A stretch of DNA of 30,093 nucleotides from a virus (lineage: Duplodnaviria; Heunggongvirae; Uroviricota; Caudoviricetes). The stretch spans positions 1 through 30,093 of the IMG/VR virus record IMGVR_UViG_2802429218_000005; one strand, written 5' to 3'. Below, one piece after another: positions 196 through 29,726 of the stretch (positions are counted from its first letter, which is position 1; every line of letters begins with the position of its first letter). Both the position numbers and the translations under genes were made by a program. The notes under the pieces are model-generated. The model ran no database searches and was not told the origin of the DNA. It worked only from the letters and a program-made list of their open reading frames with translations.

Positions 196-864
196 GTGGT
201 TAAGTGGGGCGTAACTGGCTTTACATATTCAGTATGCTTATGGATCGCAAAGTTTAAGCTTGACATAGCTTATGGTATAGCCCCAGAAAATCTTAATTAC
301 TCAACATTAGCTTATGCTTTCATGCTCTCATTTCCAATAGGAGCAATGATTTGTGCAACTACAGTCTATATATACATATTTTTGCGAGATGTATCCCCAG
401 CAAAAATAGTAATATCCTCTATGATTTCAGTATATATTGGAAACTTGGCTCAACATCATATACAGGTGAACAATCTTCCTGAAAAAATAATATTAATAGG
501 ACTCATAATTATGGTCCCCTATAACATGGTCAATCTAGCCAGTTCATTAGTTATTAAAAGGAAATTTAATTTTAATCGTTTAGTATCAGGCTTATCCCTT
601 TTTGCTGTGTCAGTTGCTCTTTTTATTATTAGCATGACAGCAATGAAATATATTGAAAGATTTCAAGAAAAGTTTATTTTTCTTGATGCAAGAACATCTA
701 CGACATGTGGTAGCCCAGAAAGCAAATCTCTTTATATTGAAAAAAATGAAAATCAGTGTTATAAAATATCAGGAAATAAATTCTCGGAGTTAAGACTAAC
801 TCTTGTAGATAAAAACATCCCGAATATAAATAATAAGGGCACTTCAACTTATGAACAAAAATAA
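196..864 (+). CDS. Hypothetical multi-pass membrane protein (AT-rich; GTG start at 196 or first in-frame ATG at 322)
   Basis: Long ORF with several hydrophobic stretches typical of TM helices; stop overlaps start of next ORF (translational coupling). No family recognised. Confidence 0.45.
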   Translation: MVKWGVTGFTYSVCLWIAKFKLDIAYGIAPENLNYSTLAYAFMLSFPIGAMICATTVYIYIFLRDVSPAKIVISSMISVYIGNLAQHHIQVNNLPEKIILIGLIIMVPYNMVNLASSLVIKRKFNFNRLVSGLSLFAVSVALFIISMTAMKYIERFQEKFIFLDARTSTTCGSPESKSLYIEKNENQCYKISGNKFSELRLTLVDKNIPNINNKGTSTYEQK

Positions 865-1078
865 CCCTGCTAATTCATTTTCTATAGAAGCAAGGAAAGA
901 AGCTTTTCGGAGAGCTGAAGCCAGTCTTTTTTTATCAAGTAAAGATCCCAAAGGCTCCTCATTTTTTAATGAAATAAAAAATAAGGTAATCAATGGAGAG
1001 CTAACCTATGAAGAGGCAAAGAGAGAAGTGTTAAATCATCACATTGAACAATCTAAAAATAAAATTAAAAAAGGCTAA
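851..1078 (+). CDS. Small charged protein with weak VbhA/YhfG-like (Fic-antitoxin-like) resemblance
   Basis: ATG at 851 overlaps stop of upstream ORF; segments RRAEASLFLSS...VINGELTYEEAKREV resemble my recollection of VbhA helices, but the inhibitory S-x-x-x-E-G motif is S-x-x-x-S-S here. Confidence 0.4.
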   Translation: MNKNNPANSFSIEARKEAFRRAEASLFLSSKDPKGSSFFNEIKNKVINGELTYEEAKREVLNHHIEQSKNKIKKG

Positions 1079-1283
1079 CATCCAGTTAGCTGTATTAGCT
1101 CAGGCTCGAACTGACAGTTTGCGTAGGCAAAATGCAACCAAATCTGACAGTCTGCTTTGAGCGAGGAGCGGACGTAGGGAATTGGTCCTTTCCCCCAACG
1201 ATAACGTGTGTTAATCAGCCGAGAGTGGGTTATGAAACGCGGTGAATAGTTATGTTCCCAGTATCGCCATATTCCAGCCACTT

Positions 1284-2669
1284 TCAACGCATGCTTTTTG
1301 CGGCCTTATCTTGCTCCCAATGTGTGACACCTTCGACCCCACGCGTCGAGTCAGATGTAAGCATCAATGGCTGTCTAAGGAAGAGCCCCATCAAATCCGG
1401 GACACGGGCAAAGTCTTGAACAGTCTCAGCCCACTCATAGTTGTCCTCTAATGGGTAATAATTAACGGCATGCAGGAAAGCACCCAACACAGTTGTTTTA
1501 GAGGCATCGTAGGCCGAGATATGCTCCATGTTTTTATCCCTACGTAGTTCTTCAATATCTATGCCTTCGCAAGTCTCATACCAAATATGCACCACGCCAG
1601 CACGATCAGGGGGAATCTGCATGACTCCATCATTGAGCAAGCTCTTGAAATGCTTGGATCTGAGGCCAAGAGAAATCTCATGATCGCAGCGCCACTGAGC
1701 TCCAACGCACTTTGCAACATCCTCTACAAAAATGTTGAGAATATCGTTATTGGTGCCAGGACGAATAACTCTCTGAGCGATAGTCGAGATACTTCGTTTC
1801 TCATTGCTATCTAGCTCCCCAAATACCAGCAATTCATGCTGTGGGCTATTGGCTCTGACTGAAAATTTTCTGTAGTGACGTCTGAGACCTAATTTGTCGA
1901 TGGCTCGTATTCCCACACTGATTGAACCTTCATTAGCTTTTCCCGTCCCCCCTTTAATGGCTAGATTCACCGCTTTAATAACGTCTGCCGGAGTCACACT
2001 GGCGACCTGCTCATGGAAAATTATATCGACAATGTTCCATGGTGCGACTTTGAGCATATGTTGGCTCAATTGATGCCAGATGTTGGCCCAGGCTTGCTCT
2101 TCTGTCTTTGAGTACTTGGTTTGCTTATCCGACCTTTTGCACTCGACGTAGAACTCCAGATCACCTAACTTGACAAGCATATCCGGTGATTTTTTGGTCT
2201 TTCCATCGGGCCAAACAATGCTGCTTTCTGGGATGAAGGCAACCTCATAGCCGTTCTTTAGGTAGAACGATGCCGTCAGCAGCTCAAAAATTTGAGTTTC
2301 TGGTTTATTGTTATTTGCTAGCATTTTGTCCAGAACATCATCGACGTATGGGACTTTGCGAAGCTGGTCTGCAACAGCTCCGATGGCCATAGCATAGGGG
2401 TAGATACGTCTGCTGCTGTAAGTAGCATCACTATATGGAAAATCATGAGACAGATACGACGCCAGAATGTACCAGTCGATGTCATCTTCTGCTGGTATGA
2501 AGAGCTGGGGCTCTATCGGCAGATTGATGTTAAACTTAGCCTCCTTCTCTCTTATGCGCTTGAAATATGCAGCTTTGCGAGCAGCCCAGGCCTCAGTTCC
2601 AAGCCTATCCACAAGCAACTGATAAAAAGCTTTTGTTCTTAAACGCTCAACACTACTGACACTATCCAT
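1284..2669 (-). CDS. Hypothetical 461-aa protein with PD-(D/E)xK-type nuclease motif (PDMLVKLGDLEFYVECK)
   Basis: Long ORF, convergent with upstream pair; motif P162-D163...E172...E176-x-K178 encoded at 2136..2186 (verified by reverse-complement translation). Confidence 0.65.
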   Translation of the reverse strand: MDSVSSVERLRTKAFYQLLVDRLGTEAWAARKAAYFKRIREKEAKFNINLPIEPQLFIPAEDDIDWYILASYLSHDFPYSDATYSSRRIYPYAMAIGAVADQLRKVPYVDDVLDKMLANNNKPETQIFELLTASFYLKNGYEVAFIPESSIVWPDGKTKKSPDMLVKLGDLEFYVECKRSDKQTKYSKTEEQAWANIWHQLSQHMLKVAPWNIVDIIFHEQVASVTPADVIKAVNLAIKGGTGKANEGSISVGIRAIDKLGLRRHYRKFSVRANSPQHELLVFGELDSNEKRSISTIAQRVIRPGTNNDILNIFVEDVAKCVGAQWRCDHEISLGLRSKHFKSLLNDGVMQIPPDRAGVVHIWYETCEGIDIEELRRDKNMEHISAYDASKTTVLGAFLHAVNYYPLEDNYEWAETVQDFARVPDLMGLFLRQPLMLTSDSTRGVEGVTHWEQDKAAKSMR

Positions 2670-2929
2670 TGCGGTCTCTCTTGGTTGTTGTATAGAGTCT
2701 TTAGCGATATATGTGATTTCAACTTATTGGAGGTATTATCCTTCAGAAATCAAAGTTTGCTACCACAAAGAAATAGAAACTCTTTATTGCATCCTGTGTA
2801 AGTATCTATCCAAGCGGACCATTAGTTTTTTTAGATATCTGACGTCCCGCAACGTCCGCTTCTGGCACAGAGCGGACTGTCAGCTTAGGTTAAGCCCTAT
2901 GATCCTACCCACGTAATATGGACACAGGC

Positions 2930-3796
2930 CTAAGCGAGGTTCTTGTTTTCAAATTGTTCCGGACTGAGGCCGCCACACCAACTGTGCCGCCGCCACCGAT
3001 TGTAATCACATTCGATATAATTAAACACCGTTGCCCGCATTATTTCCCGGCTGATAAAGTGTTCTCCATGGATACATTCCACTTTCAGCGAATGAAAGAA
3101 GCTTTCCACGCAGGCATTATCGTAGCAGCAACCTTTTGCGCTCATACTTCCACGCAGATTATGCCGCTTCAGTTGCGCCTGATAATCTGCTGAACAGTAC
3201 TGGCCTCTACGGTCCGTGTGAACGATAACGTTCCGGGGCCTCTTACGCCGCCACAGCGCCATCTGCAGGGCATCGCAGGCCAGTTGCGCCGTCATGCGTG
3301 GCGACATTGACCAGCCAATAACGGCACGTGACCACAGGTCAATGACCACTGCCAGATACAGCCAGCCTTCATCTGTACGTAAGTACGTGATGTCTCCTGC
3401 CCACTTCTGGTTCGGGCCACTGGCGTAAAAATCCTGCTCCAACAGATTTTCTGACACAGGCAGGCCGTGTGCGCGGTAGCTGACCGGGCTGAACTTCCGG
3501 GAGGCCTTTGCCCTCAGTCCCTGACGGCGCAGGCTTGCCGCCACGGTTTTTACGTTAAAGGGGTAACCCTGAGCACGCAGTTCATCCGTCAGGCGTGGGG
3601 CACCGTAACGCTGTTTTGACCGGGTAAAAGCCGCGAGGACAACGCTGTCGCAGTGTTGGCGGAACTGCTGACGCGTGCTTATCCTTGTCCGCCGCTGACA
3701 CCACGTATACCAGCCGCTGCGGGCCACCCGGAGCACGCGGCACATTGCTTTGATGCTGAACTCAGCCTGATGTTTTTCAATAAAGACATACTTCAT
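2930..3796 (-). CDS. insF: IS3 transposase OrfB (DDE catalytic component; normally expressed as OrfAB by -1 frameshift)
   Basis: Translation [32 protein letters not shown]... with integrase-core motifs ([18 protein letters not shown]); frame is -1 relative to orfA. Confidence 0.9.
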
Positions 3797-7590: not shown

Positions 7591-7872
7591 TTATTCTTTC
7601 GGTTTTATCTTCGGTGGCCTACCTCGTTTCTTTTGAACCATTTCAGCACGCTGCATTAAATCGCGGTTTTCCAGCTCTGATTCAACAGAATTATCTATCC
7701 ACTCTTTAACATCTTCTCGACGCCACAAAAGTCGCTTATTGCCAGGAAGACGGCATCTGGGAGGGAGGCATTTAGGGTTCCGAGTTGCATCACTACGGAT
7801 ACTTTTCACTGTTTTCTTCAAAGCAAAAGCTAACTCTTCGACGGTTATAAGTTCAGGCATAACTGGTTTCAT
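7591..7872 (-). CDS. AlpA/excisionase-family HTH DNA-binding protein
   Basis: LITVEELAFALKKTVKSIR ... RLPGNKRLLWRREDVKEWI resembles HTH_17/AlpA/Xis-type regulators of integrative elements; basic C-terminal tail. Confidence 0.55.
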   Translation of the reverse strand: MKPVMPELITVEELAFALKKTVKSIRSDATRNPKCLPPRCRLPGNKRLLWRREDVKEWIDNSVESELENRDLMQRAEMVQKKRGRPPKIKPKE

Positions 7873-8180
7873 AGCAGAACCTATCTCTCAGAAAATATTT
7901 TCAGGATTTTAGCCGCTATAATTTTAGCCGCTAAATTTTGCAAACCAACGTTAAGAATTGAGAATACCCAAAAATTATCACCTGAAATATTTCTGTCAAC
8001 ACCTCAACAGCTAGAGGAAATAAAAAACCACTGGACCAGCTCTATTTTTTGTTCGTTTTTTGCACAACAATAAGGTTTTAATAAGTCTTTTAGTATTTTG
8101 GTTATATATATGGTTAAAGATCTGGTTAGAGAACAATAAAACAATAGCTAATCCGTTGTTTTGTAATTAATTTAAAAAAA

Positions 8181-8246
8181 TGCCCTACCTCATATGTCAA
8201 TAATTTGCCCCTCATATGTCATGAAATGGCCCCTCATATGTCATAA
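8181..8246. repeat. Three tandem iteron-like direct repeats, 22-bp period, core cctcatatgtca (8188, 8210, 8232)
   Basis: Direct reading: tgccctacctcatatgtcaata / atttgcccctcatatgtcatga / aatggcccctcatatgtcataa. Confidence 0.7.
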
Positions 8247-8331
8247 ACATAAAAAAACAAGCACAGGTTATAAACATAGTTACTAATAGAATTTGTGGAT
8301 AAATGCACAGGATATACGCAAAAAATATAAA

Positions 8332-8347
8332 TTGTTTAGCTAAACAA
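8332..8347. promoter_or_regulatory. Perfect 16-bp palindrome TTGTTTAGCTAAACAA (copy 1), candidate operator
   Basis: Exact self-complementary sequence; identical second copy at 8505..8520. Confidence 0.6.
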
Positions 8348-8403
8348 AATAGCAACAATAAAAATGAAACAAAATGTAAATAATGGATTTTGGCTATAGT
8401 TAC

Positions 8404-8429
8404 CCACAAAGGTTAGCTAACCTTTGTGG
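8404..8429. promoter_or_regulatory. Perfect 26-bp palindrome CCACAAAGGTTAGCTAACCTTTGTGG sharing core TTAGCTAA with the 16-bp palindromes
   Basis: Exact self-complementary sequence; followed by a 16-bp palindrome tctcataattatgaga at 8432..8447. Confidence 0.6.
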
Positions 8430-8504
8430 TATCTCATAATTATGAGAGCACCATCATTAACAACGGATATATCGAAACGAGTAACAGAAAATGCTCCTCG
8501 ATGG

Positions 8505-8520
8505 CTTGTTTAGCTAAACA
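8505..8520. promoter_or_regulatory. Perfect 16-bp palindrome TTGTTTAGCTAAACAA (copy 2), candidate operator
   Basis: Identical to copy at 8332..8347. Confidence 0.6.
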
Positions 8521-8813
8521 AATTTAAATTTTACTAAGTATGTATGAAGGGCAAAACCTGATCCCAAACAGGAAGGAATGGTCAATGGATAGGTGTTTTT
8601 GCTGCATAGCAACGCTACTCGCAATATAACCAGAAAAATAGGGATACTAAACCCGACAGGTGAGGCCGGGCTTGAGTATTTGTAGCTCTGGGCGGAGGGG
8701 ACATCCCACATTAGACGAAAAAATTCTATAATGAATTGTTGAGGTAAAGCAATTAGGTATTATCTAAAACAAGTTATCGCTGATGTAAAAGTTGTTATCT
8801 AACAAGTAGAAAG

Positions 8814-9080
8814 GTGAGAATTGTGAGGACAAAAAAGGCTGAACCAAGCACTGTAGGTGAAATACTTAATGAAGAATTCTTGAAACCCATGAATATGTCT
8901 TTATGTAAATTAGCGGAATTGACAGGAATGTCTTATAGTAGAATAAGAAAAATTATAATACATAATGATCCAATATCCATAAAAGAAGCATTATTACTTG
9001 CTGAAGTATTTCACACGGATCCGGATTTTTGGATAAACTTACAAAATGTTCATCATTACTGGCATCAAAAATGTAACTGA
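8814..9080 (+). CDS. XRE-family HTH protein, HigA-like antitoxin/antidote (solitary); alternative GTG start at 8823
   Basis: STVGEILNEEFLKPMNMSLCKLAELTGMSYSRIRKII...EALLLAEVFHTDPDFWINLQNVHHYW matches HigA/VapI-type antidote pattern; SD aaggtgag upstream of GTG 8823. Confidence 0.7.
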   Translation: MRIVRTKKAEPSTVGEILNEEFLKPMNMSLCKLAELTGMSYSRIRKIIIHNDPISIKEALLLAEVFHTDPDFWINLQNVHHYWHQKCN

Positions 9081-9134
9081 TATCAAAATCTGCCGTTAAT
9101 AATGTGTATTATCAACGGCATGTATTTAACAAGA

Positions 9135-10880
9135 TTAATTATACTCAATGCGGAATAATTTATTCTCTTGAGACAATTTCACAATGAAGTTTTTCTCATC
9201 GCTCAGTTCTTTTGGAAGTTTATCCTTCAATATAGATGCAACATACTGAATTTGAGATTTGTAACGTTCAACAAGATTAGCTATTCTGACCAGTTGATTG
9301 CCATGCATAAGTTCTTTTTTGTCATTTAACAAAAAATGGAAACAAGGAATGTTTTCTTCATCTGCAAATAAAATATATGCAATATCAAAACAAACAATTT
9401 CTCCTTGTTTTTTTCCTGAACTAAAATTGGTATTAAACGAACTGAATTTGTATATTTTTTTTCCTGTTTTTGATGCTGTAACAATATCATATTTCAAAGC
9501 ATATTGTTCACCGTATAACTCTTGAGACACAGTTGAAAAATATTTATTGAACTTATTTACTTGAGATTGAACTTCTAACTCAAAATCATCAGAAAATAAA
9601 TTATTGTTAATAGCATCAACTTGAGCGTTTAACTCTTCGATATTCTTTTCAGTTTTCTCAATTTGGTTAATAATGGCTTCGAACTCACCTTTTTTTCGGT
9701 GTTTTTCATTCAATTCTAAGACTAGTCCTTCAAGTTCATCAAACGAACCGCTTTTATTTATATTTTCAACTAATTCTTTTTCTTTGGCAAGAAGTATAGT
9801 TAAATCTTCTTGAGTTTTACTAATCTCACTAGTTATTACAGGTAATTCTTTTGATATGAATTTAACTTTTTCTTCAACCATTTGGTTGTGGAAGGAAAGT
9901 AATGATTCAAATTTTACCTGAATATTCTTTATATTATTACTGGCTTCAGTATATAGATCTTTCAATTGATTAGTGTCAATTTCCATCTTGCCACTTTCAA
10001 TATCTTTTACCGCCTCAACTATGAGTTCTTTCCGTAATTTAAGCTTACTTAATTTTGAACCTATAGTGCTCAATTGATACTTAATATCATCCAAAGCATT
10101 GAGATCATTTTCAAAGTTAGGGTTGATATAGAAAGTAGACTTTTTCAGATCTAAATCATTAATTTCCGAAATCAATAATGCTAGTGATGTCTCATATGCA
10201 GTGCGAGTTTGTTTAGACTCCAACCTATTCTTGAAGGTTGTTTCCATTCGGATGCTAGCTAACAAATTTTGTTTAAGAGCTCCTTTTCCAAAATCACATC
10301 CAAGAAGAAATAAATGAAGGGTCTCATATTCATCATCACGAGTAAATGAGCTTAGTGTTCTCAGCGTATGGGTGACACTGAGTTCTTTATATCTTATATT
10401 ATTAGATATTATTTGGGAAAAGGTAGGCTTATTACCATAATGGCCAGAAACTAATACGTCTGTTAACGTTTCTTCAAACTCTTCGATTGTTTTTTGTAGT
10501 CCATTAATTCTTCTGATACATTTTTTACGAGAGAGAAAATTTCGCTCAATGACGATGGTCTTAGCTAGCGGATCATCTAAATCCTCAACAAGTGTTAGGG
10601 TTATTAAAACCTCTGTTTCAATCAAGAAGTTTTTAACAAGTGTATATTCGCCCTTTTTAGTTTCTGGGTCAGTATAAATGCCTTTAGCATCTGCGCCTAA
10701 ACAAAAATCGACTAACATTAATACTGTTGTTTTACCAACATTATTGCCAGTGGTTTTGGTTGACTCGGTTGATGCTTCATCAACTGGCGTTTCATCAACG
10801 ATCAAATTCAAACCAGCATGAAACTTTATTAAGCGTATAACCCCATCTTTATTGGCTATCTGGAGAGATTTTATGAACAT
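9135..10880 (-). CDS. SMC/Rad50-like ABC ATPase with central coiled coil (LmuB-like / ABC-3C ATPase candidate)
   Basis: N-terminal FHAGLNLIVDE then Walker A GNNVGKTT (res 45-52); long E/K/L-rich central region; C-terminal Walker B-like ILFADEE; AT-rich; last gene of coupled 3-gene operon. Confidence 0.7.
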   Translation of the reverse strand: MFIKSLQIANKDGVIRLIKFHAGLNLIVDETPVDEASTESTKTTGNNVGKTTVLMLVDFCLGADAKGIYTDPETKKGEYTLVKNFLIETEVLITLTLVEDLDDPLAKTIVIERNFLSRKKCIRRINGLQKTIEEFEETLTDVLVSGHYGNKPTFSQIISNNIRYKELSVTHTLRTLSSFTRDDEYETLHLFLLGCDFGKGALKQNLLASIRMETTFKNRLESKQTRTAYETSLALLISEINDLDLKKSTFYINPNFENDLNALDDIKYQLSTIGSKLSKLKLRKELIVEAVKDIESGKMEIDTNQLKDLYTEASNNIKNIQVKFESLLSFHNQMVEEKVKFISKELPVITSEISKTQEDLTILLAKEKELVENINKSGSFDELEGLVLELNEKHRKKGEFEAIINQIEKTEKNIEELNAQVDAINNNLFSDDFELEVQSQVNKFNKYFSTVSQELYGEQYALKYDIVTASKTGKKIYKFSSFNTNFSSGKKQGEIVCFDIAYILFADEENIPCFHFLLNDKKELMHGNQLVRIANLVERYKSQIQYVASILKDKLPKELSDEKNFIVKLSQENKLFRIEYN

Positions 10881-11100
10881 ATTCCAATTTCCCCTTTGGA
10901 TTTAATTCAACTATTCCTGCTAGGTATAACCAGTCAAGAGATAAAACAAAAATTGATATAGACATTTCAATTTTTTTCTTTGTTTCGTAAAAAAGATCTA
11001 TCAATTCAATTTCATCGAAACGTTTCAGCGTATCTATAATAAACCCACCGTTATAATATAAGCTATCTTTAGGATGAATGTCCTTTGGTAACAACATCAT
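10849..11100 (-). CDS. Small overlapping ORF (83 aa), candidate middle component of three-gene system
   Basis: Overlaps upstream gene end and downstream gene start by 32 nt each (translational coupling); no motif recognised. Confidence 0.4.
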   Translation of the reverse strand: MMLLPKDIHPKDSLYYNGGFIIDTLKRFDEIELIDLFYETKKKIEMSISIFVLSLDWLYLAGIVELNPKGKLEYVHKISPDSQ

Positions 11101-12049
11101 TCACTCCGTTAGGGTCCCTAAAAATTTTACAGCGTATGAACGCGTCCACTGCAAGTATACTAACACAAAGCTCCAGTTCCTCTAATGGTATTTGTGTAAA
11201 ATTTGCACTTTTTCTGACCATTTCAACAGAGCTGTCAATTATTTTAAAAAATAGCTCATCTCCAGTGTATTGTGTACTCAATTTTACGAAGATAGTTCTA
11301 AAGGAAGACAAAACTGAAAGGCTTGAGTTTTTACCCATCTGGTTGAACTCTGAATAAATGCGGGATACTTTTCCATGATGGATTTTGTAATCTTCAATAA
11401 TATATTCAGCTGCATTCAAATTATTAAATGTAATCTTGTCAGTTACATCGAATGGTTGCGGGAAGTCAGTAGTTTCAACATTAGAAAAATCCTCCTTAGC
11501 TAATATATTTATAACAGCAGCAATATTTGTTTCGATTAAAACATTATCAGATTCCTCTTGTAACTCATTTTTTAGAAAACCGTGTATTTCTTTCTGTTTT
11601 GTTATGTCAAGATGTGAAATAACATTAAGTATCGATTTTACATCATGAATATCTTGCTGCGGTATAAAAACCAAAGCATGAGGATTAGTGTAAGTTTTAT
11701 TTCTTAAATCACTAGCATCTTTTGCAATTGATATAAATTTAAACTGATGGCCTTTATATAATCTTAAGTCTTTGTTCAAGGCTGAATCAATTTTTGTTTT
11801 AGTTGCAGTTGATGAAACCTGTAATACTATCTTCCCATTCTCATCGATAAGATCGATACCCTCAAAATTATGCTTCTCTTGATTAGTATTCTTTAGGGAA
11901 TACCCAAATAATAAATTAAAGAAGTGAACATAAAAATCTTCACAATGAAGATTATAGTTAAGAATATTTAACTTCCCTCTTAATTCAACGCTATAGCATA
12001 GCAACGTAAGCCTTTTCTCACATAAATCAAAATAAATAGATCTGTTCAC
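11069..12049 (-). CDS. Hypothetical 326-aa protein, candidate effector (LmuA-position) of three-gene defence-like operon
   Basis: First gene of the operon; AT-rich; no confidently recognisable catalytic motif by eye. Confidence 0.6.
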   Translation of the reverse strand: MNRSIYFDLCEKRLTLLCYSVELRGKLNILNYNLHCEDFYVHFFNLLFGYSLKNTNQEKHNFEGIDLIDENGKIVLQVSSTATKTKIDSALNKDLRLYKGHQFKFISIAKDASDLRNKTYTNPHALVFIPQQDIHDVKSILNVISHLDITKQKEIHGFLKNELQEESDNVLIETNIAAVINILAKEDFSNVETTDFPQPFDVTDKITFNNLNAAEYIIEDYKIHHGKVSRIYSEFNQMGKNSSLSVLSSFRTIFVKLSTQYTGDELFFKIIDSSVEMVRKSANFTQIPLEELELCVSILAVDAFIRCKIFRDPNGVNDVVTKGHSS

Positions 12050-16962: not shown

Positions 16963-17762
16963 CAGGCAGCCCTCACGATATAATTAAAGGCAATGTTACG
17001 GGGTCGATTTTCGTTTGCAGTTGGAACAATTCTTGAAGCATCAAGGCCAATCACTTTTGGGTAAACACTGCCCTCGGACCTTTCTGTCACCATACTTCTG
17101 ACTAAGGAGAAATAACTATTGTTCGTTGAGGGGTTCAAAGGCACCACTGCCCCCTTAAACGAGCCTACTGATTCCCATATTGAATAATTTTCGGTGTTTA
17201 CAGTCTTGAACTCACCATAGATATTACGTATGGCATCGCCCTGAGCGGATAATATTGTTCTCCCCGCATCCGCACTACGCCCATCATCCCAGCCACGAAT
17301 AAATTCACCGCGTAAATCAGGCAATTTATTTGTCGGGTAAGCCTTTGCCAGTTCCGGGTATTCTTCAGCAGAAAAAGCCGCACCATTGCATTTCAGCCAG
17401 CCTGTCGGCGGAGTGGCGGAAGGCCACGGAACAGGCACACCGACAGGTAATGCAGAGCCTTCTCCCAAACCAAGGTTTTCGAGAGCCGTTTTCACCGTGC
17501 CATCCGATTTGATATCGCCAAACGGATTCTTGCGGCTTAACAGCAGCGCACGAAGCGCGGTAAGCAGCTGGTCGTGCCGCGCCTTCTCCAGACTGGCACC
17601 GGATGCCTCCACCACGCTGCAGAGTTCTTCCTGCAACATATCAAAGTAGTCATCATCCAGATCGGTGGCAGGCGTGCCAGTCTGGGGGTTACCACGGGTA
17701 AAACCGTTCTTACCCGCGCCGAACTTATCCTTCTGCGCGGTTTTCGTGTCTATACGATGCAT
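16962..17762 (-). CDS. Tail fibre protein (constant N-terminal part about 100 aa outside invertible segment, variable C-terminal part inside)
   Basis: Collar-like region [23 protein letters not shown]...[16 protein letters not shown]; crossover site lies within codons for ALENLGLGE. Confidence 0.85.
17460..17485. repeat. Invertase crossover site (gix/pix-like), copy inside tail-fibre gene
   Basis: ttctcccaaaccaaggttttcgagag, inverted relative to the 15849 site. Confidence 0.7.
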
Positions 17763-17765
17763 GGA

Positions 17766-18350
17766 TTACTCCGGATATTTAAAAATTACGTAGGTATGCG
17801 AAGGGGAGAGTTTGTTAAGCACACATTCGACGACGGTGTCGCCCCAGATACGCAGCGCGGTATCACAGGGATCGCCACATGTCATCCAGGTGGTGTTGGT
17901 GGCGGCTGGCATGTTGACCTGCCAGTAATACCGCCATTCCGGCGCATTCACCGCGTCAGTACAGGCAGATGAGCAGGTGAACGTGCTTTTGTCGTATCGC
18001 GTGATGGTAGCGTCTGGTCTGCCCAGGGCAGCAAGCTGTGCAAGGTAAAAATCCTCATTGATGCCGCCCGCCAGGTTAACCTTCGCATCCAGTCGTTGCT
18101 GACGCTGGCGAAGGGTCTGTGTCCCTGCGGGAATACATTCATCCGGCAGACCGCACAGACGCTCCCAGCGGTTTATCAGTTCAGTGGTGGTGCGCGGATC
18201 CAGCTCCCGCATCAGGGCATCCGCACGCTGATGAACGCGGGTTAATGACGGTGCCGCACCGGCAATCGCCGGATCTCTGGCTGACCACGCCGGACCGGGT
18301 GGCAACAGTGCCGACAACAGACGGATGTAATCATCGTTTGTCACGTCCAT
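17766..18350 (-). CDS. Baseplate/tail protein, Mu gp48-like (YmfQ/DUF2313-like)
   Basis: Position between baseplate J-like and tail fibre; N-terminus [22 protein letters not shown] as in e14 YmfQ-type proteins as recalled. Confidence 0.75.
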
Positions 18351-19399
18351 GAAATCGTCCCCAGTACCGCCAGTTCATTTTTTGCAATGGAGATATTGTC
18401 CGCCGGTGCAAGCAACTGATGGCTGTATTCCCCGTTCGCACCGGAAATCGCTTCACTGATACGTGACACCTTCAGTTCTCCCTGCGGATAACCATCACGC
18501 AGCAGGAACGAACGCAACTCCGCGGTAATGGCAGCCCGTATTTCTGGTGTGTCCGGCGTCACGCGGATATGAAAATCCACCGTATGTGCCACCGGCCTGA
18601 ATACATACAAATCAGAGCCTGCCACCGGGGCCAGTGGCCCGATATGTTGTCTTGCTGCCGTTTCCGTTGATTCTTCCGGAATGGGATTAATCAGGTCACT
18701 GCTGGCAATCATCACACCGACAGTTCCCGTTCCCATCCAGTGGCGGTATGTCCATGCACGGGTAATGCCTGGCACTTCTTTAGCCCAGACGACATAGTCC
18801 CCGTCAGCCCCGCCCTGAGGCGTCCAGTAATACCGCTCAATGACGCGGGCGCGCCACGTTTCCAGCTCTTCAGTATCAAATCCGCCTGTCAGGGTGTCAG
18901 CCACACCGGAAGACGGCAGACCATTCACCGGCGTGACCAGGATTAATGCCGTACCGTCGTCAGCGTTACCGACCGCGCCTGTAGTTGAGCAAGTGATCGG
19001 CACACGCAGGACACCACCGGAGCTGGTTGCATCGGCAGTTGCCGTGTACTGAACCAGGTCATCGCGCTGAATCACGCTCCCGGCAGTCACCTTCAGGCCA
19101 TCGCTGACACCTTCCCAGCGCATATACCCGCTGGCAGCCGTGGCCCCCTTGCGCGGACACCGTTTCATCGCAGCATGTCGCGCCAGCCAGGACTCATCGC
19201 ACAGGTCAGGCAGCATATTCATTGCCAGATAATCGATGTACCCGTAAACCGTATGCAGCGCCGCCGCATACACCTTTGCCCGCACGTCTTCATCCATGCG
19301 CCGGAGCGTGTCGCTGACGTCCAGCCTGGCGAATAAATCGTTACGGAGCATACTGATATTTTCTGCCAGCGTCGGGCGCTGAAATTCACTGTCCGCCAT
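18341..19399 (-). CDS. Baseplate J-like protein (Mu gp47-like)
   Basis: Size and position in conserved Mu-like baseplate gene order; overlapping start/stop with neighbours. Confidence 0.8.
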
Positions 19400-19814
19400 G
19401 CGTTATCGCACTCCACAGATCATCAAAAGAAATCATTACCGGTCCGTCACGACGCCAGAGAGTGATACTGTTACCCAGTTCATTAATCCCGGTGCGGCGG
19501 ATATCCAGATCAATACGGGACACCACGCCGTCATCAATCATCCATTGCAGGCATTCGCGGATATATCCCCTTACCGTCTGCACCAGTTGATTGGTCAGTT
19601 TGCTGCGCTGAAGCAGCCACAGTCGGGAGCCGTAACGGTCATTCTGTACCGCAGGCCAGGTATCCCCCCACCATCCCATCGGGACGTCGGCGTTGTCATC
19701 AGGCTCCGCCCGCCGCCAGGTAAACAGGGAAATCACCACGGCGCGGGTCAGCGGATCCAGCGGTGCGCTGGCGCAGGTGCGTTTACCGTTCACCGTCAGC
19801 CACAGTTCCATCAT
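19386..19814 (-). CDS. Baseplate protein, Mu gp46-like
   Basis: Size and position between gp45-like and J-like genes; overlapping coupling. Confidence 0.75.
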   Translation of the reverse strand: MMELWLTVNGKRTCASAPLDPLTRAVVISLFTWRRAEPDDNADVPMGWWGDTWPAVQNDRYGSRLWLLQRSKLTNQLVQTVRGYIRECLQWMIDDGVVSRIDLDIRRTGINELGNSITLWRRDGPVMISFDDLWSAITHGGQ

Positions 19815-20359
19815 GCCTCCATCGCTTTATCCGGTTTGTCGGTGTTACTGCCCTGACCGTTCTCTCTGTGACGATGCCCGTTATAGGCAAGCCGCATCGC
19901 TGACATGGTGGTACCGCCGGAGTCGCACAGGTCTTTCACCTGTCCGGTCACTTCCAGGTCCATTTCAAAACGTGCTCTGGGCGCATTGCGAAACGTGATC
20001 GTTTTACCTGCACCGTCCACCACGATCCCCTCCCGGGTCAGCGTCACGGACTGCCCCTGATCGTCATAGACAGCCACCTCACCCGTCTGCAGCCCTTTCA
20101 GGCGGTAGCGCCGGTCCGACACCGTAACAACCACCGCATGAGAACGGTCACCATCCGGAAACAACACCACCGCTTCCGCACCGCTGTTTGCCCTTGCGGT
20201 AAAACCGTAGGGTTCAAGATGTTCAACCCCGGCTTTGGGTTCACCGGCAATCAGGGACACATCCACGGTCTGACATTTCGTGGCGGCACTGATGCTTTTC
20301 ACCACCGCCCGCCCAATCAGGCCGAGGAGTTGTCGCTGTATGGTTTCAATCGCCTTCAT
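19811..20359 (-). CDS. Baseplate assembly/spike protein, Mu gp45 (gpV-like)
   Basis: Size, position and overall pattern of gpV-like proteins. Confidence 0.75.
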   Translation of the reverse strand: MKAIETIQRQLLGLIGRAVVKSISAATKCQTVDVSLIAGEPKAGVEHLEPYGFTARANSGAEAVVLFPDGDRSHAVVVTVSDRRYRLKGLQTGEVAVYDDQGQSVTLTREGIVVDGAGKTITFRNAPRARFEMDLEVTGQVKDLCDSGGTTMSAMRLAYNGHRHRENGQGSNTDKPDKAMEA

Positions 20360-21438
20360 CAGAACGGGTCCTCCTGTACTCTGGCTTTTTTCTTTTTCCG
20401 CGCGCCGGGGGCTTCGGGTTCAGGCAGATAAGCATCAGGTGGGCCGACACGGATTTCCGTCAGGGTGCCATTCTGGTCCTGAGTAAACGTGACTTCCGAG
20501 ACAAGCAGTTCGGTATTGTCGAAACCACAGACCGGATCGAAGACAATCACCCGCTGGTTGGGCTGCCACAGCGTACCGTTACCCTGTCGCCAGCCCTGCA
20601 CCACATAGGTGGTTTCATCCGTCCGCGCCGCCCGTTGTCGGGCTTCAAAGTCAGCACGCGCAATACAGCCTGCCCCCGTAGCCTGCCCTGTCTGCCTGAT
20701 ATACATCGGACGGTAACGGGCAATAAATGCATCCTCTGTGCGGGCCCGCAGCGCGGTGGTGGTGGCCTCACCGAAATCATCGTCGTTTCCGGCACGCTGC
20801 CCCGCCACCTGGTAAACTGAAAACCGCTCCCGGATACTCTTCTCCGTATCACAGGAAAGGATGTTTTCCCCAAGTACCAGCGCGGTATGTGCCCGCGTTG
20901 AGCCAATACCACCAATCACCAGCCTGCCGTGCGGGTCGTCATAAGCCAGCGCCTGCTGCTGACCGAGTATTTTGTTGATCACCTCGATCACCGTTTCACC
21001 GTGATCAGGCTGGACATCCGGAATAACACCCGACGGCGCACCGTTGTTCACCACCTCAATGCCGAAGGGCGCAGCAAGCGCCTGCGCAATCTGTACCAGC
21101 GATCGTCCGTTAAACTGTGTCGGTTCGGCTGCACAGTCAATCAGATCAGCGGTTAGACTGCGTCCGGCAATACCGGTGCTGACCGAACGGGCATCGTAAC
21201 GAACGGGCGTCGCCTCCACCCAGCCGGTGATCACCAGCTCATCACCAATCAGCACTTCCACTTTTGAACCGTTTTTAATGCGCGGCTGAAGCGTGGTGAT
21301 ACCCTCATCTCCCGGCCACTGGCGGGTGATCTCCACACTGAAATCCCGCGCCAGTCGTTCAACACCGGCACCGATGCGCACCGATGTCCAGCCATTCCAC
21401 TCCCGGCCATTTACCCGTAGCGTGACGTTATCGTTCAT
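20359..21438 (-). CDS. Tail/baseplate hub protein, Mu gpP / late control D-like
   Basis: Size and position downstream of DNA-circulation gene in Mu-like order. Confidence 0.75.
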   Translation of the reverse strand: MNDNVTLRVNGREWNGWTSVRIGAGVERLARDFSVEITRQWPGDEGITTLQPRIKNGSKVEVLIGDELVITGWVEATPVRYDARSVSTGIAGRSLTADLIDCAAEPTQFNGRSLVQIAQALAAPFGIEVVNNGAPSGVIPDVQPDHGETVIEVINKILGQQQALAYDDPHGRLVIGGIGSTRAHTALVLGENILSCDTEKSIRERFSVYQVAGQRAGNDDDFGEATTTALRARTEDAFIARYRPMYIRQTGQATGAGCIARADFEARQRAARTDETTYVVQGWRQGNGTLWQPNQRVIVFDPVCGFDNTELLVSEVTFTQDQNGTLTEIRVGPPDAYLPEPEAPGARKKKKARVQEDPF

Positions 21439-22763
21439 TGCACTGGCACCTTCAGAGGGATCACCGGCACAAAGCCGGGATGCGTAATGGCATTACGCCG
21501 GATAATGTCCGCGTCACGCGCCGCGTTATCAAACCAGGTCGCCGCCAGCACCAGCGCGGGTAAAACCTCATCCGGCGTGCGCTGAATGATCCGTGCAGAC
21601 TGTTCAAGGCGCGTGTTGATATCCGCATTCAGATCTGCTTTCACCCGGCGCAGCGCCAGAAACAGCGCATCACTGGTTGTACGGGACAACTCCTTATCAA
21701 TTGCCGTATTCAGTGTGTCGCGAATGTCAGTCAGTTCTTCCCACGTCGGCAGGTCAACTGTGTTTTTCACCGCCGGTGCATTGTTCAGTGCCGGATGCGT
21801 GACGGAAGGCCAGCCAGTGCTCTGCGCGGGTGTTGTTGCCTGCCCCACTGCGGAATTCTGCATCACCGCGGAAGTTGTTGGCGCAGGCAATCGGGTGACG
21901 GCATACGCCGCTTCGCTGATTGCGGTCGTACGAAGGGTGCTGGCAACCACGTTACGCTGCTGCGTCGCCGTGGCGGTGGTTTTACTGTCCGTTTTCCAGA
22001 CGCCGCGCGGTTGCAGATCGCTGCCGAGGCTGACACCGGAAAGCCTTTTGATCATGGTGACCAGGTCGCTGGCGTTACCATAAAGGCGTTTCCCGGTACG
22101 CCACATTTTCTGCACCTGCTCAACGAAATTTTTGCCTGACGATGGCGGCGGCAGAAGTACCGAGATATCCCCCTGCAACAGCCTGGCGGCATCCGATACG
22201 GCAGAATCCACCACTTTCATCGCATCAGAAACATACCCCAGCATTATGCTGGCATTACCGATAACGTCGTTCTGCACGAAATCCGCCACACCATCGATAC
22301 TGAAACCGCTGAAGCTGTCACTGATGCAGTCATCCAGTGCAGAACAGGATGACATCAGCGTCTGCGCCGTCGCCGCACCTGATGTGGGGTAAGAGAGTTC
22401 TCCTGCTTCGACAAACTTCAGGTCAAAGCGGACAATACGCCCTTCACTTTTCGATGTGCTGACCCGAACTTCCCCGTCAACACAGACTTTCAGCTCACCA
22501 TATGTCGGGTGGACAAGCGTGCCGGGACCGGGTTTATTCAGCGCGTCAATCAGGCGATCGCGCTGGTCAAAGCAGTCATCTCCCACCACATAAGCTGTGA
22601 TGGACGGGCGGAAAGTGACTTTTCCCAGATCTTCGGTATAGGGCTTGTCGCGGTTCGGATATTCGTGTGTTTCCACACGGCGACCGGTTCCCGCACTTTC
22701 TTCTTCAACCTTAAACGGTACGCCGCGAAATGACGCATCCTGAAGCCTGTCTTTCCACGTCAT
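21435..22763 (-). CDS. DNA circulation protein (Mu gpN-like)
   Basis: N-terminus MTWKDRLQDASFRGVPFKVEEES...HEYPNRDKPYTEDLG typical of Mu N family; SD GGAG upstream. Confidence 0.8.
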   Translation of the reverse strand: MTWKDRLQDASFRGVPFKVEEESAGTGRRVETHEYPNRDKPYTEDLGKVTFRPSITAYVVGDDCFDQRDRLIDALNKPGPGTLVHPTYGELKVCVDGEVRVSTSKSEGRIVRFDLKFVEAGELSYPTSGAATAQTLMSSCSALDDCISDSFSGFSIDGVADFVQNDVIGNASIMLGYVSDAMKVVDSAVSDAARLLQGDISVLLPPPSSGKNFVEQVQKMWRTGKRLYGNASDLVTMIKRLSGVSLGSDLQPRGVWKTDSKTTATATQQRNVVASTLRTTAISEAAYAVTRLPAPTTSAVMQNSAVGQATTPAQSTGWPSVTHPALNNAPAVKNTVDLPTWEELTDIRDTLNTAIDKELSRTTSDALFLALRRVKADLNADINTRLEQSARIIQRTPDEVLPALVLAATWFDNAARDADIIRRNAITHPGFVPVIPLKVPVQ

Positions 22764-22777
22764 ATAAACTCCGGATA

Positions 22778-22834
22778 CAAAAAACCCGCCAAATCTGCTT
22801 TGTCAGTTATTTACATCGCAGAAGATGTGGCGGG
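22778..22834 (-). terminator. Imperfect hairpin followed by T6 on minus strand downstream of moron ORF (possible leaky terminator)
   Basis: Minus-strand cccgcca ... tggcggg stem followed by tttttt; loop is long, so weak. Confidence 0.3.
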
Positions 22835-22853
22835 AACCTAATATTTTTAATTA

Positions 22854-23366
22854 CTATCTGAGTTGAACATCAATGGAATAAATATCACCACTCTTTATAA
22901 ATTTAGAATCTGTCCTTTCATCAAAAGATTCAAATGACTGTACCTTTAAAAACTTTTTCATTTTATTTTCAAAAATACTTTCATTAACACCAGTTAAATA
23001 CTTGAACGCTCTACCAGCAAGGACCTCATTACTTAAATCCATTGTGTTTTTATTGTCTTTGAAAAACCAAACAATAACCTTTTGTGGGCATGATGGATTA
23101 TAAACAGATATATAAAACTGCGGCTCATATTTTTCATCAGCGTCATCACTAAGCATTTCTTCAGAAGATAATTCTCTTCTGAATTCATATTGCCGCTTAG
23201 TTATTCCTTCATCCTTTATTATCTCTTGCTTAACTGGTGCAATACCTATAGAAGAGATTAATTCTGACTCATTAAAGCTGAACTTACACTCTTCCGCAGC
23301 CAAGTTAAAAGATAAAAGTGCAGATATAAAAAAAACAAAGATACGCATAATCATCCCTTCAATCAT
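22854..23366 (-). CDS. Low-GC secreted protein of unknown function (moron inserted in tail operon)
   Basis: N-terminal signal-peptide-like MRIFVFFISALLSFNLAAEE; markedly AT-rich versus flanking tail genes; flanked by non-coding gaps. Confidence 0.6.
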   Translation of the reverse strand: MIEGMIMRIFVFFISALLSFNLAAEECKFSFNESELISSIGIAPVKQEIIKDEGITKRQYEFRRELSSEEMLSDDADEKYEPQFYISVYNPSCPQKVIVWFFKDNKNTMDLSNEVLAGRAFKYLTGVNESIFENKMKKFLKVQSFESFDERTDSKFIKSGDIYSIDVQLR

Positions 23367-23447
23367 TTGTAAGGAATGATTATATTAACTACTTAAAGCT
23401 GAAAACCCAAATTATGCCAGACAAAAACACATTAATCATTTTGTACA

Positions 23448-25280
23448 CTACCTGAACCGCGTATAGCCAACATCATGGCTGACATCAAAACCGCTGGATC
23501 GCGTTTCCATAACCCGCATACCCGGAGGCGAATTCACAAAAGATACCTTGATCTCACCATCAACTTTTGGCACAGAAGCTTTGTTAATCATGAAGGGATT
23601 CGAGCCTGTGGCATCGGAGGCGTTGTTTGACTGAGCCGGATCCACCGCCGGATAAGGTGTGTATCCCCGCGCCGGTATTCCCGTCCCATAAGCATCATAA
23701 GCACCCGCGCCCCACTGCGCAGAGTTAATGGCATCGACCGTGTCACCGGAACTGTCGGTAAACCACTCAATAATTGGCTTCAGCTTGTCCCACATATCCT
23801 GAAACCACTTAACAACCGGTCCCCAGTTATTGATCACCATCCCCAGCGGCGACCAGGCAAAAACCTTCTTCAGAAGTTCCCAACCTGCCTCAAAATAAGG
23901 ACCAATGGTTTCCCAGAGCTTCTTGAAATAAGGTCCGACAACATCCCAGTTAGTGATAATTAATCCCGCAGCCAGAGCAATCGCCGTCGCAATCATGCCA
24001 ATCGGCGTCATCGACATAATCCTGCTGACAATACTGATGGCACTGCCCACGCCCATCAATCCCAGTTTCAGAATCGCAAGACCGGCAGCAAGCCCGACGA
24101 CGCCGCGAATAACCCGGGGATTTTCATCCGCAAACTTCGTGAATTTCTCCCCCAACTCCCCCAGCCATTGTGTGATATTTTTAGCGTCACCAGAAAATGC
24201 GCCGCCAATAGCCGCAAGGCCGTTAGTTGCGGTCCCTGTCATTGCCTCCCACAGGTTGGACAGCGTACCAAGCTGTGCCTGAACACGTTTATTCAGGCTG
24301 GCCTGTTTATTCATCTTCTGCTGGATCTGATCGTAGCCATCCTTTCCTTTATCGATCAGAGCATTGACCACCTGAAGGGTTTCAGCATCATCACCAAATA
24401 TTGCCTTAAGTACACCTGTTCGCTTAACGTCGGTCAGTTTTCGCAGCTTTGCCAGTTGCCTGAACATGTTATCAAGACCGCCAAAACTTCCTTTGCCGTC
24501 AGTAAAATCGAGCTGTACCCCGAGTTTCTGGCGGGCCATAACTTTATTAACGTCCCTGATTTTCTTAACGCTTAATCCGGACTGGATAACTTTTCGCAGG
24601 GCATTACCTGCCGACTCCCCGTTCATCCCCATCTGATCCATCATGACGCTGATGGGGGCAAGGCTCTGTGCAGCCTGAAGACCGTCCTTGTTCACCATCT
24701 TCAGAACAGAACTGGTTTTAGTGAAGAAGGACAACATGTTGGTATCGTCAACGCCCAGATAAAACGCCTTCTGGATAGTGTCGAACAGCCCCATCATGTC
24801 TTCTGACGTCGTTCCGGTAGCATCCTGCATCTTTGCAGCAAACTCAGCAGCCGCTTCCGGTGTTTTTTTCAGTTGTACCGCAAGATAAGCTGTCGCTTTA
24901 CCCACACCACCCAGAATGTTTTCTGCCGGGATCCCCTGACGCACCAGCATCTGCATCATGTTCTGGAAATCAGCCGTTGTACCGGGTAGCTGGTTACCCA
25001 GGCCAATAGCCAGTTTATTGATGTCCTGAAAGCTCTTTCCAACCTCGCCGTTCGCATCCATCATGGCGACTTTCAGCCCGGTGGCGGCGTTTTCCTGATC
25101 GGCATAAGATTTCAGGGAAAGCGTCAGACCCGCTGCCAGTCCGCCACCAAGCGCCAGCCCACCCTGTGACGCTTCTTCCGCCTGGCGTTTAAATCCCCGG
25201 ATTTTCTTTTGCATTTTCGACAGCGCGGGAGAAAGCCTGTCGACACCGGTGATCAACGCCTTAAGCTCAAATTCAGCCAT
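23448..25280 (-). CDS. Tail tape measure protein
   Basis: 610 aa, Ala/Gly-rich helical and hydrophobic segments, located after chaperone pair. Confidence 0.85.
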   Translation of the reverse strand: MAEFELKALITGVDRLSPALSKMQKKIRGFKRQAEEASQGGLALGGGLAAGLTLSLKSYADQENAATGLKVAMMDANGEVGKSFQDINKLAIGLGNQLPGTTADFQNMMQMLVRQGIPAENILGGVGKATAYLAVQLKKTPEAAAEFAAKMQDATGTTSEDMMGLFDTIQKAFYLGVDDTNMLSFFTKTSSVLKMVNKDGLQAAQSLAPISVMMDQMGMNGESAGNALRKVIQSGLSVKKIRDVNKVMARQKLGVQLDFTDGKGSFGGLDNMFRQLAKLRKLTDVKRTGVLKAIFGDDAETLQVVNALIDKGKDGYDQIQQKMNKQASLNKRVQAQLGTLSNLWEAMTGTATNGLAAIGGAFSGDAKNITQWLGELGEKFTKFADENPRVIRGVVGLAAGLAILKLGLMGVGSAISIVSRIMSMTPIGMIATAIALAAGLIITNWDVVGPYFKKLWETIGPYFEAGWELLKKVFAWSPLGMVINNWGPVVKWFQDMWDKLKPIIEWFTDSSGDTVDAINSAQWGAGAYDAYGTGIPARGYTPYPAVDPAQSNNASDATGSNPFMINKASVPKVDGEIKVSFVNSPPGMRVMETRSSGFDVSHDVGYTRFR

Positions 25281-25455
25281 GTGTGCGTTTCTCCTGCTCT
25301 ATCCTGTTTGCCTGACTGACCAGTAAGGGAATTTCACTGATCGGCATATTCAGCAATTCGAAAGGATTAATGCGCCAGTAGCTGGCGCAGTCAAAGAAGC
25401 GATCAGTGAGGTATTCAGCCGTCAGGCCTGGAGGAAAAAACCAGCCACAAGCCAC
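25273..25455 (-). CDS. Tail assembly chaperone frameshift extension (-1 frame, expressed as fusion with upstream ORF)
   Basis: Overlaps 3' end of chaperone ORF in -1 frame; slippery heptamer T TTT TTC in overlap; stop overlaps tape-measure ATG. Confidence 0.5.
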   Translation of the reverse strand: MACGWFFPPGLTAEYLTDRFFDCASYWRINPFELLNMPISEIPLLVSQANRIEQEKRTHG

Positions 25456-25691
25456 GCCGCTGCATTCAGGTCTGCCGGAGACATCTGGTCGACAGAGCTT
25501 TGCGGCACTTTCGCCAGCCGCACAATGTATTTCGACACCACATGCGCCAGAAGTCTGACTGACTCATCCTGATTCATCTGGTAGGGATACCCCAGCTCGC
25601 GGACATCCTTCCCGGTGGGCTCATCAAACTCCAGTACGGAGAGTGTCTCGCCATGAGCAGTAATCGGTTTCTTTAACTCAAGCTCTTTCAT
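25422..25691 (-). CDS. Tail assembly chaperone (gpG/gpE-like)
   Basis: Small ORF between tube and tape measure with downstream overlapping -1 ORF. Confidence 0.6.
   Translation of the reverse strand: MKELELKKPITAHGETLSVLEFDEPTGKDVRELGYPYQMNQDESVRLLAHVVSKYIVRLAKVPQSSVDQMSPADLNAAAWLVAGFFLQA
25423..25429 (-). promoter_or_regulatory. Programmed -1 ribosomal frameshift slippery heptamer (minus-strand T TTT TTC)
   Basis: Heptamer in 0-frame X XXY YYZ configuration within the overlap of the two chaperone ORFs (plus-strand gaaaaaa). Confidence 0.55.
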
Positions 25692-27543: not shown

Positions 27544-27705
27544 CGGTATTCACCTTTTTATTCACGCGCCGGATATCACCCGCTGCTTCACGGCGCAGCC
27601 AGTAGTTGTTCTCGTCAACATTTCGCCCTTCGGCGGGCAAAAGGTCGCCGCGGGCAGGGTCAGGAACTGACCGCCCTTTAACAGGTTTCACAAACATGAA
27701 GATTC

Positions 27706-29474: not shown

Positions 29475-29476
29475 AC

Positions 29477-29677: not shown

Positions 29678-29726
29678 GATTCTTCACCCGTCAGAACAGG
29701 GGGCGCGGTTCCGCGCCCCTGAGTGA

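Follow-up and report, generated by a model that had tools for sequence, protein, structure and literature searches.

In phage P2, the gene Fun(Z), annotated as blocking T5, occupies a slot between genes G and FI that has been named the Z/fun hotspot (10.1101/2024.10.15.618418). Three validated defence systems have been found at the fun locus (Vassallo 2022, PMC9519451), the tail-gene hotspot downstream of GpL holds 16% of P2 defence systems, and six of eight randomly chosen P4 hotspot loci of unknown function protected against phages (PMC13586616). Here we analysed the gene for a protein of 461 amino acids (aa) in a 30,093-nucleotide (nt) stretch of DNA from a tailed virus (IMG/VR record IMGVR_UViG_2802429218_000005, positions 1 to 30,093; hereafter the window). 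The window sequence is part of the chromosome of E. coli TW14425, where the protein is WP_000378754.1, a 'hypothetical protein'. A role in defence is probable for this protein, and we somewhat favour the more specific reading that it is a stand-alone anti-phage (superinfection-exclusion) nuclease carried by mobile elements. A single-gene PD-(D/E)xK defence nuclease in a prophage hotspot is of a familiar kind; the family itself has no name yet.

Shedu (SduA, DUF4263), a single-protein defence nuclease, gave no sequence, Pfam or PADLOC match to the 461-aa protein. Structural similarity between the two was limited to the core, and the 461-aa protein combines a central nuclease with a large conserved C-terminal domain. 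NucC, Cap4 and HamA need a partner to become active, either a cyclic-nucleotide synthase or the HamB helicase, whereas the 461-aa gene has no conserved partner. The gene shares with P2 Fun(Z) the slot between G and FI and the inverted repeats that flank it, but Fun(Z) is 528 aa long and is encoded on the strand opposite the tail genes; homology between the two proteins was rejected (BLASTP E 1.7, hhalign probability 0.4%). The closest relatives of the core in both sequence and structure are the archaeal resolvase Hjc, AHJR-like and Mrr_cat, which have the same arrangement of Glu in helix 1, Asp in strand 2 and Glu-x-Lys in strand 3. Hjc is ~120-140 aa long, while the core makes up one third of the 461-aa protein, and the gene is found as mobile-element cargo rather than among recombination genes. 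AF1548 (PDB 1y88), an uncharacterised restriction-endonuclease-like protein of 184 aa, is 9% identical and covers the core only.

Predicted nuclease core and flanking regions

The coding region and the parts of its product lie in the window as follows.

1284..2669, minus strand: coding sequence of the 461-aa protein, from the list of open reading frames (ORFs), the RefSeq annotation of the identical record and full-length homologs of ~460 aa
2310..2669, minus strand: N-terminal all-helical region, ~residues 1-120 (boundary approximate), from AlphaFold2 (AF2) secondary structure and conservation
1995..2309, minus strand: predicted PD-(D/E)xK (restriction-endonuclease-fold) core, ~residues 121-225, comprising a helix with E129, three strands, a helix with E190 and a fourth strand
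2136..2186, minus strand: motif PDMLVKLGDLEFYVECK with predicted catalytic D163, E176 and K178, from translation and alignment conservation
1380..1994, minus strand: C-terminal alpha/beta domain, ~residues 226-430, with near-invariant Q351, H361, E365 and E415

The preliminary description of this DNA had proposed a single unpaired 461-aa gene carrying a nuclease motif. The ORF was confirmed: it runs on the minus strand, at 1284..2669, as a single unit, and none of its neighbours is conserved across 15 loci; 2136..2186 translates to PDMLVKLGDLEFYVECK, and the numbering of P162, D163, E172, E176 and K178 is correct. However, the motif alone is not beyond chance, as D-x(8-25)-[DE]-x-K arose in 96% of shuffles of the protein and PD-x(8-25)-[DE]-x-K in 17%. 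The case for a nuclease therefore rests on fold and conservation.

An AF2 model was built from a 45-sequence alignment (predicted local distance difference test, pLDDT, 86.7; predicted TM-score, pTM, 0.87). Its central part consists of a helix (123-138), three strands (142-145, 164-168 and 171-179), a second helix (188-208) and a fourth strand (212-218). This is the alpha-beta-beta-beta-alpha-beta order of the restriction-endonuclease core, the fold of the superfamily, and it is present at the motif, as had been anticipated. In the AF2 secondary structure, E129 is located in the first helix, D163 precedes or starts the second strand, and E176-x-K178 lies within the third.

We then examined conservation in 106 near-full-length distant representatives with a median identity of 22% to the query (107 aligned sequences with the query). 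E129 was retained in all 107, E176 and K178 in 106 each, and D163 in 104, with Glu in the other three. By conservation, these four residues ranked within the top seven positions of the protein, namely E129 (100%), E176, K178, E190, Q351 and H361 (99% each) and D163 (97%). The conserved set is E129...D163...E176-x-K178, plus E190, with the E129 codon at 2283-2285. The proposed active site therefore held for D163 and E176-x-K178 but not for E172, which is 33% conserved in distant relatives and lies outside the site. The Asp of strand 2, the (D/E)-x-K of strand 3 and the Glu of helix 1 that mark the PD-(D/E)xK superfamily are all in place and conserved in homologs. Weak matches to Hjc (PF01870) or Mrr_cat (PF04471) were given by 1-2 of 53 relatives. 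Local Foldseek matches included the PD-(D/E)xK homing endonuclease I-Ssp6803I. The PDB was also searched by sequence with the protein and with the family and C-terminal profiles, and nothing meaningful came back. We are highly confident that the 461-aa protein has a PD-(D/E)xK nuclease fold with an intact predicted site. From alignment and model, the core would be a metal-dependent DNA endonuclease of the Hjc/Mrr-like type.

Helices of the N-terminal region span residues 3-23, 25-44 and 64-73 and continue to 109-117 in the AF2 model, and W28, R31, D62, Y67, P91 and G97 are conserved. The C-terminal domain had no solved-fold match. Its near-invariant Q351 (codon 1617-1619) and H361 (codon 1587-1589), together with E365 and E415, suggest that the domain has a specific role in binding or catalysis, and we propose that it may be a sensing, regulatory or target-recognition module. 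The same three-part layout of N-terminal helical region, nuclease core and C-terminal alpha/beta domain is kept throughout the family.

Cassette, boundary repeats and slots

In E. coli, the gene and its upstream region form a 1.75-kb cassette bracketed by a 40-nt inverted repeat. Besides the coding region, it has the following parts.

2670..2851, minus strand: 5' non-coding part of the cassette, with a presumed promoter of its own and a ribosome-binding site (GAGAGA) before the ATG; 99% identical in prophage copies
2852..2891, plus strand: upstream boundary repeat ACGTCCGCTTCTGGCACAGAGCGGACTGTCAG..., a hairpin with a 7-bp stem followed by TGTCAG
1136..1175, minus strand: downstream boundary repeat ACGTCCGCTCCTCGCTCAAAGCAGACTGTCAG..., the inverted partner, from inverted-repeat search and alignment

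The DNA common to the window and the prophage copies is 1110/1144..2889, and 2660-2889 is 99.1-99.6% identical to the prophage-type loci L002-L005 by blastn. The ORF is intact in the window, and the stretch containing it is shared at 100% identity with two other genomes and at 99.9% with a fourth. Although the gene had been placed in AT-rich accessory DNA, its own GC content (46.2%) equals that of the window (mean 46.3%) to within a tenth of a per cent. Only its flanks are AT-rich, with 35.4% GC in 1-1283 and 40.9% in 2670-2901.

An alignment of 18 repeat copies gave the consensus AACGTCCGCT-N10-AGCGGAC-TGTCAG, a pattern with exactly two occurrences in the 30-kb window, where chance would give none. 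In reference P2, five other prophages and three integrative elements, a homologous repeat borders the slot on either side. The orientation of these repeats is constant (cargo, repeat, backbone). They mark every junction between cargo and backbone, and in a two-gene prophage two copies stand back to back between the genes. Because the same repeats flank unrelated cargo, including Fun(Z), Lit, Shedu, DUF3800, DUF4365 and hypothetical proteins, they belong to the slot and not to the 461-aa gene. Homologs of the gene in Pseudomonas, Pantoea and other bacteria lack the boundary repeat.

The upstream repeat folds into a hairpin of -9.2 kcal/mol (z -3.3), while the downstream class folds poorly (-1.7 kcal/mol), so that the sequence rather than the hairpin is conserved. 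A terminator or structured RNA was considered for the repeat and rejected, since only one of the two classes folds stably, no T-run is present and Rfam gave no match. As only one class forms a stable hairpin and Rfam gave no match, we read the 40-nt repeat as a putative recombination or protein-binding site. The inverted repeats around fun, in P2 and in bacterial genomes, reportedly make it possible for the gene to be exchanged site-specifically between phages and bacteria (Nilsson 2004, cited in PMC8987985), and the 40-nt element is probably the repeat described there. By the description in PMC8987985, the 461-aa gene is likewise cargo flanked by inverted repeats of the P2 Z/fun type. The boundary element is known in kind, and it marks the 461-aa gene as exchangeable cargo. 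Copies outside the window include those in phage P2 (L037, about 1325-1362 and 3431-3496), the strain CT282 element (L038, 6037-6073 and 7453-7503), a sister element (L039, 6045-6075 and 10075-10105) and the strain E15 prophage (L002, 10490-10549, 11960-12050 and 13709-13746).

We next located the gene in complete E. coli genomes. It was present in 42 of 5,426, always on the chromosome; five had the context of the window and 37 fell into three P2-prophage boundary classes. One example of each class was inspected (strains HCP5S3_I4, E15 and CUVET20-PYO2), and all three were P2-like prophages. In these, the gene lies between the tail-fibre-assembly and tail-sheath genes, either beside a DUF3800 gene or, as in HCP5S3_I4, as the only cargo of the slot. 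Escherichia phage 899 also bears the gene in the Z/fun slot, and a 99.3% copy was found in Yersinia phage GMG73, an unannotated 33.8-kb record. The same slot contains Fun(Z) in reference P2, Lit plus a DUF2634 protein in strain MS 69-1, and hypothetical proteins in other prophages.

The DUF3800 protein is a co-cargo of 348 aa (phrog_12991, function unknown), located at 10815-11861 in E15 (L002) and at 7666-8712 in phage 899 (L004). In the two two-gene boundary classes it accompanies the 461-aa gene, as inspection of two examples and of phage 899 showed; by class, 36 of the 42 E. coli genomes are of this kind. Every cargo gene of the two-gene slots has its own inverted repeat pair. Because the DUF3800 gene also has a boundary-repeat pair of its own, we regard it as an independent cassette and another candidate defence gene.

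In the window, the gene sits in a tRNA-Ser integrative element. The backbone of this element consists of an integrase, a 296-aa membrane protein, a VbhA-family small protein, the slot, a 70-aa ORF and TrbL-TrbJ-TraJ; in the window, the integrase and the first part of the 296-aa gene have been lost to IS1. The slot contains Shedu SduA in the sister element of strain CT282, a DUF4365 protein and two hypothetical proteins in strain 2017.06.05CC, and other genes in strain M3. Since the same repeat bounds the Z/fun slot and the slot of the tRNA-Ser element, the cassette is probably exchanged between both.

The membrane-protein/small-protein pair convergent with the gene, noted in the preliminary description, is indeed present. 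It is not a partner of the 461-aa gene but element backbone, because it is also found when the slot holds other cargo. A toxin-antitoxin pairing with the VbhA-family gene was rejected for the same position of that gene in the backbone. The multi-pass membrane protein (196-864, plus strand) and the VbhA-family 'antitoxin' (851-1078, plus strand) are translationally coupled, with a 14-nt overlap, and there is no Fic/VbhT toxin nearby in the window. Truncated by IS1, the window's membrane protein corresponds to residues 75-296 of the 296-aa phrog_26661, and the pair forms a conserved module directly after the integrase in the sister elements L038, L039 and L043.

On the other side, an IS3 end does lie upstream of the gene, but at a distance of 230 nt from the ATG instead of the 231 bp given earlier, as its left end, TGATCCTACCCAC, starts at 2900. 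The IS3 (2900 to about 4157) inserted 9 nt beyond the upstream repeat and now separates the cassette from the 70-aa ORF/TrbL backbone. Strain A30 (L006) has the same cassette without the IS3 and diverges after window position 2873 into a different integrase-containing segment.

A second variable defence slot of the same integrative element follows an orphan HigA-family antitoxin gene at about 8823-12049 (L001 23823-27049) and contains an ABC-three-component system (DUF2326 protein, middle component 6 and ABC-3C protein); in strain CT282 (L038), the anti-phage peptidase IteS is at the corresponding site. The right half of the window, from about 17469 to 30093 (L035), is high in GC (~58%) and is a Mu-like prophage tail/baseplate region with a pinE-type invertase beside alternative tail-fibre-assembly genes. 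Just outside it, a LEM-3-like GIY-YIG nuclease gene is separated from corA by IS1 copies.

Family members and their neighbours

The protein had first been described as an orphan. In fact, it has 132 close clusters and 513 distant representatives. The close family was obtained by a word-indexed search, and the best 120 of the 132 clusters are 53-98% identical to the query and mostly full length (~460 aa). Close clusters come from Enterobacteriaceae, Pseudomonas, Aeromonas, Stenotrophomonas, Comamonas and others, and every name given by the source for the best 120 is 'hypothetical' or equivalent. An exhaustive profile search of 1.84 billion representatives (50% identity) then yielded the distant family, with 513 proteins at E <= 0.001 and 263 at E <= 1e-10, most of them 430-470 aa long and matching end to end. 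Aeromonas, Alteromonas, Chryseobacterium and uncultured Treponema are among the sources, and the family extends over Pseudomonadota, Bacteroidota and Spirochaetota. When the search was repeated with the profile of the distant family, mostly members of the close family came back, and no new names were gained.

One distant member only was labelled, with an automatic 'Restriction endonuclease'. The sole PHROGs match of the 461-aa protein was PHROG 37220 (function unknown), a family of the same protein, over 461/461 residues. PADLOC-DB v2, which includes Shedu, PD-T4/T7/lambda and the PDC candidates, gave no match for the protein at E up to 10, and with 53 relatives PADLOC gave scattered single matches at E 0.002-0.009, at chance level. 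A literature search by accession and keyword found no description of the protein, and its accessions are cited by no paper in the library searched. The family is unnamed and undetected by Pfam, NCBIfam and PADLOC v2. In Aeromonas hydrophila and A. veronii (the cluster of P0123), some copies are split into adjacent fragments of 300 + 177 aa or 300 + 83 aa; these copies are frameshifted or decaying, whereas the E. coli gene is intact.

All-against-all comparison of flanking ORFs at the 15 loci revealed no common neighbour; only the 461-aa gene was shared. Across 14 genomes from other genera, the loci have just the gene itself in common. Among the 106 flanking ORFs are five integrases, TraI, a transposase, LmuB, CapP/CapH/Cap4, AriA, RmrA/RmrT, HamA, ABC-3C parts, Schlafen and AbiL. 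The P. aeruginosa copy stands in an integrase-bounded island, with a Lamassu system on one side and AbiTii on the other, and the Aeromonas copy is on a conjugative element. Distant relatives adjoin type I restriction-modification (R-M) + CHAT, SIR2-pAgo + ArdA, Gabija, HamA, and SIR2 + AbiE. The gene is located in defence hotspots or islands, and known defence genes replace it at the same site. On a metagenomic contig (L024, 1325-6703), the distant relative P0140 is 44 nt downstream of GajA-GajB (Gabija) on the same strand. This relative could be a co-transcribed add-on to Gabija, an arrangement absent from the other loci examined.

Interpretation of the 461-aa protein

The stand-alone defence or toxin context proposed in the preliminary description stood for defence, with much stronger support than could be seen from the sequence, as the gene is cargo of the Z/fun hotspot and, in the element backbone of the window, its slot is filled by Shedu in another strain. 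It did not stand for a toxin. A toxin-antitoxin system would have an adjacent co-conserved antitoxin, and the 15 loci share no neighbour; since no antitoxin-like partner is conserved, the toxin alternative is left without support. For the favoured anti-phage nuclease, we infer nuclease activity, a DNA substrate, an anti-phage phenotype and a regulatory role of the flanking domains. The effector would be a metal-dependent PD-(D/E)xK DNA endonuclease with the catalytic set E129 / D163 / E176-x-K178. As long as the cell is uninfected, the N-terminal region, the C-terminal domain or both may hold the nuclease inactive or without a target, and either or both may sense infection or recognise phage DNA. 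Once engaged, the nuclease would cut DNA and thereby stop phage replication. The cassette, with its own upstream region, would be exchanged between the P2-like Z/fun slot and the tRNA-Ser element slot.

Several results weigh against this reading. The Pfam AHJR-like (PF18743) match was below the cut-off (16.5 vs 26.1 bits, E 0.0065), and neither Pfam, NCBIfam nor PADLOC v2 gave a match at the curated threshold or with a meaningful E-value. Foldseek against the PDB returned no match at E <= 0.001, and structural similarity was restricted to ~110 residues with modest Z. A simple sigma-70 scan found no strong consensus promoter upstream of the gene; because it gave no strong candidate in 2670..2851, the promoter placed there is a presumed one. 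Moreover, P2 hotspot cargo is partly non-defensive and includes partition systems, cytolethal distending toxin and tail-fibre swaps (PMC9122126; 10.1101/2024.10.15.618418), and machine-learning scores rate only 15-32% of unknown P2 proteins as defence-like.

Other explanations differ in how the nuclease would be used. A modification-dependent (type IV-like) restriction enzyme, which is unlikely though the best placed of the four considered here, would itself be a mechanistic form of defence: its C- or N-terminal domain would recognise phage DNA by a modified base or some other feature, and the Mrr/Hjc-like core would cut it directly, providing constitutive, non-suicidal immunity. The gene is a stand-alone PD-(D/E)xK nuclease without a cognate methyltransferase or other conserved partner at the 15 loci, and is sole cargo in HCP5S3_I4. 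Such a mode of action would also explain how the host tolerates an unpartnered nuclease, and the weak Mrr_cat matches of some relatives, as well as the extra conserved domains that are constant across the family, are consistent with it. We consider it rather improbable that the protein is a repair, recombination or junction-resolving nuclease serving the mobile element, either as an Hjc-like resolvase or as a replication or packaging helper. The nearest relatives of the core do include the Holliday-junction resolvases Hjc and AHJR-like, and phages and conjugative or integrative elements carry the gene. However, the gene is replaceable in its slot, as it occurs in only 42 of the 5,426 genomes and the sampled P2-like prophages carry unrelated cargo; the same cassette alternates with Shedu in non-phage islands. 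The protein is also far larger than resolvases, with two extra conserved domains, and no recombination or replication genes are conserved beside it at the 15 loci.

A protein with the nuclease fold but without activity, such as a DNA-binding or scaffold protein or a decaying remnant, seems more improbable still. The modest similarity of the core and the split Aeromonas copies would fit it, but the four predicted catalytic residues are kept in 97-100% of relatives with ~22% identity, which points to selection on catalysis, and the window ORF is intact, with near-identical stretches in other genomes. Least probable of all is a selfish nuclease that mobilises its own cassette in the manner of a homing endonuclease or transposase, or an addiction toxin that stabilises the element. 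The 40-nt inverted repeat around the gene and the I-Ssp6803I match could be taken in favour of self-mobilisation, but the same repeats surround unrelated cargo and so are part of the slot, which ruled out a nuclease mobilising its own cassette; they are also missing around the Pseudomonas, Pantoea and other homologs. Against an addiction toxin, no antitoxin-like neighbour is conserved.

The favoured reading of a stand-alone anti-phage nuclease can be extended, though tentatively and with clearly less confidence than the reading itself. The protein could be the founding member of a cross-phylum single-protein defence family, in which a C-terminal domain of new fold acts as an infection sensor, or as a second catalytic or ligand-binding centre (Q351/H361/E365/E415), and controls the Hjc-like nuclease. 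If true, this would be a new coupling of sensor and effector and not one more restriction-like enzyme.

If the anti-phage role is confirmed, the 461-aa protein would add one more family to the single-gene anti-phage systems, with members in P2-like prophages of clinical E. coli lineages and in islands of Pseudomonas, Aeromonas, Chryseobacterium and others. The cluster of conserved C-terminal residues, as strongly conserved as the four predicted catalytic residues and set in a domain of no known fold, is the part likeliest to reveal how a lone nuclease stays safe and is then triggered. As one and the same cassette occupies a slot among phage tail genes and a slot of an integrative element, with the same repeats around it, the locus would offer a clean natural example of the movement of a defence gene between kinds of mobile element.

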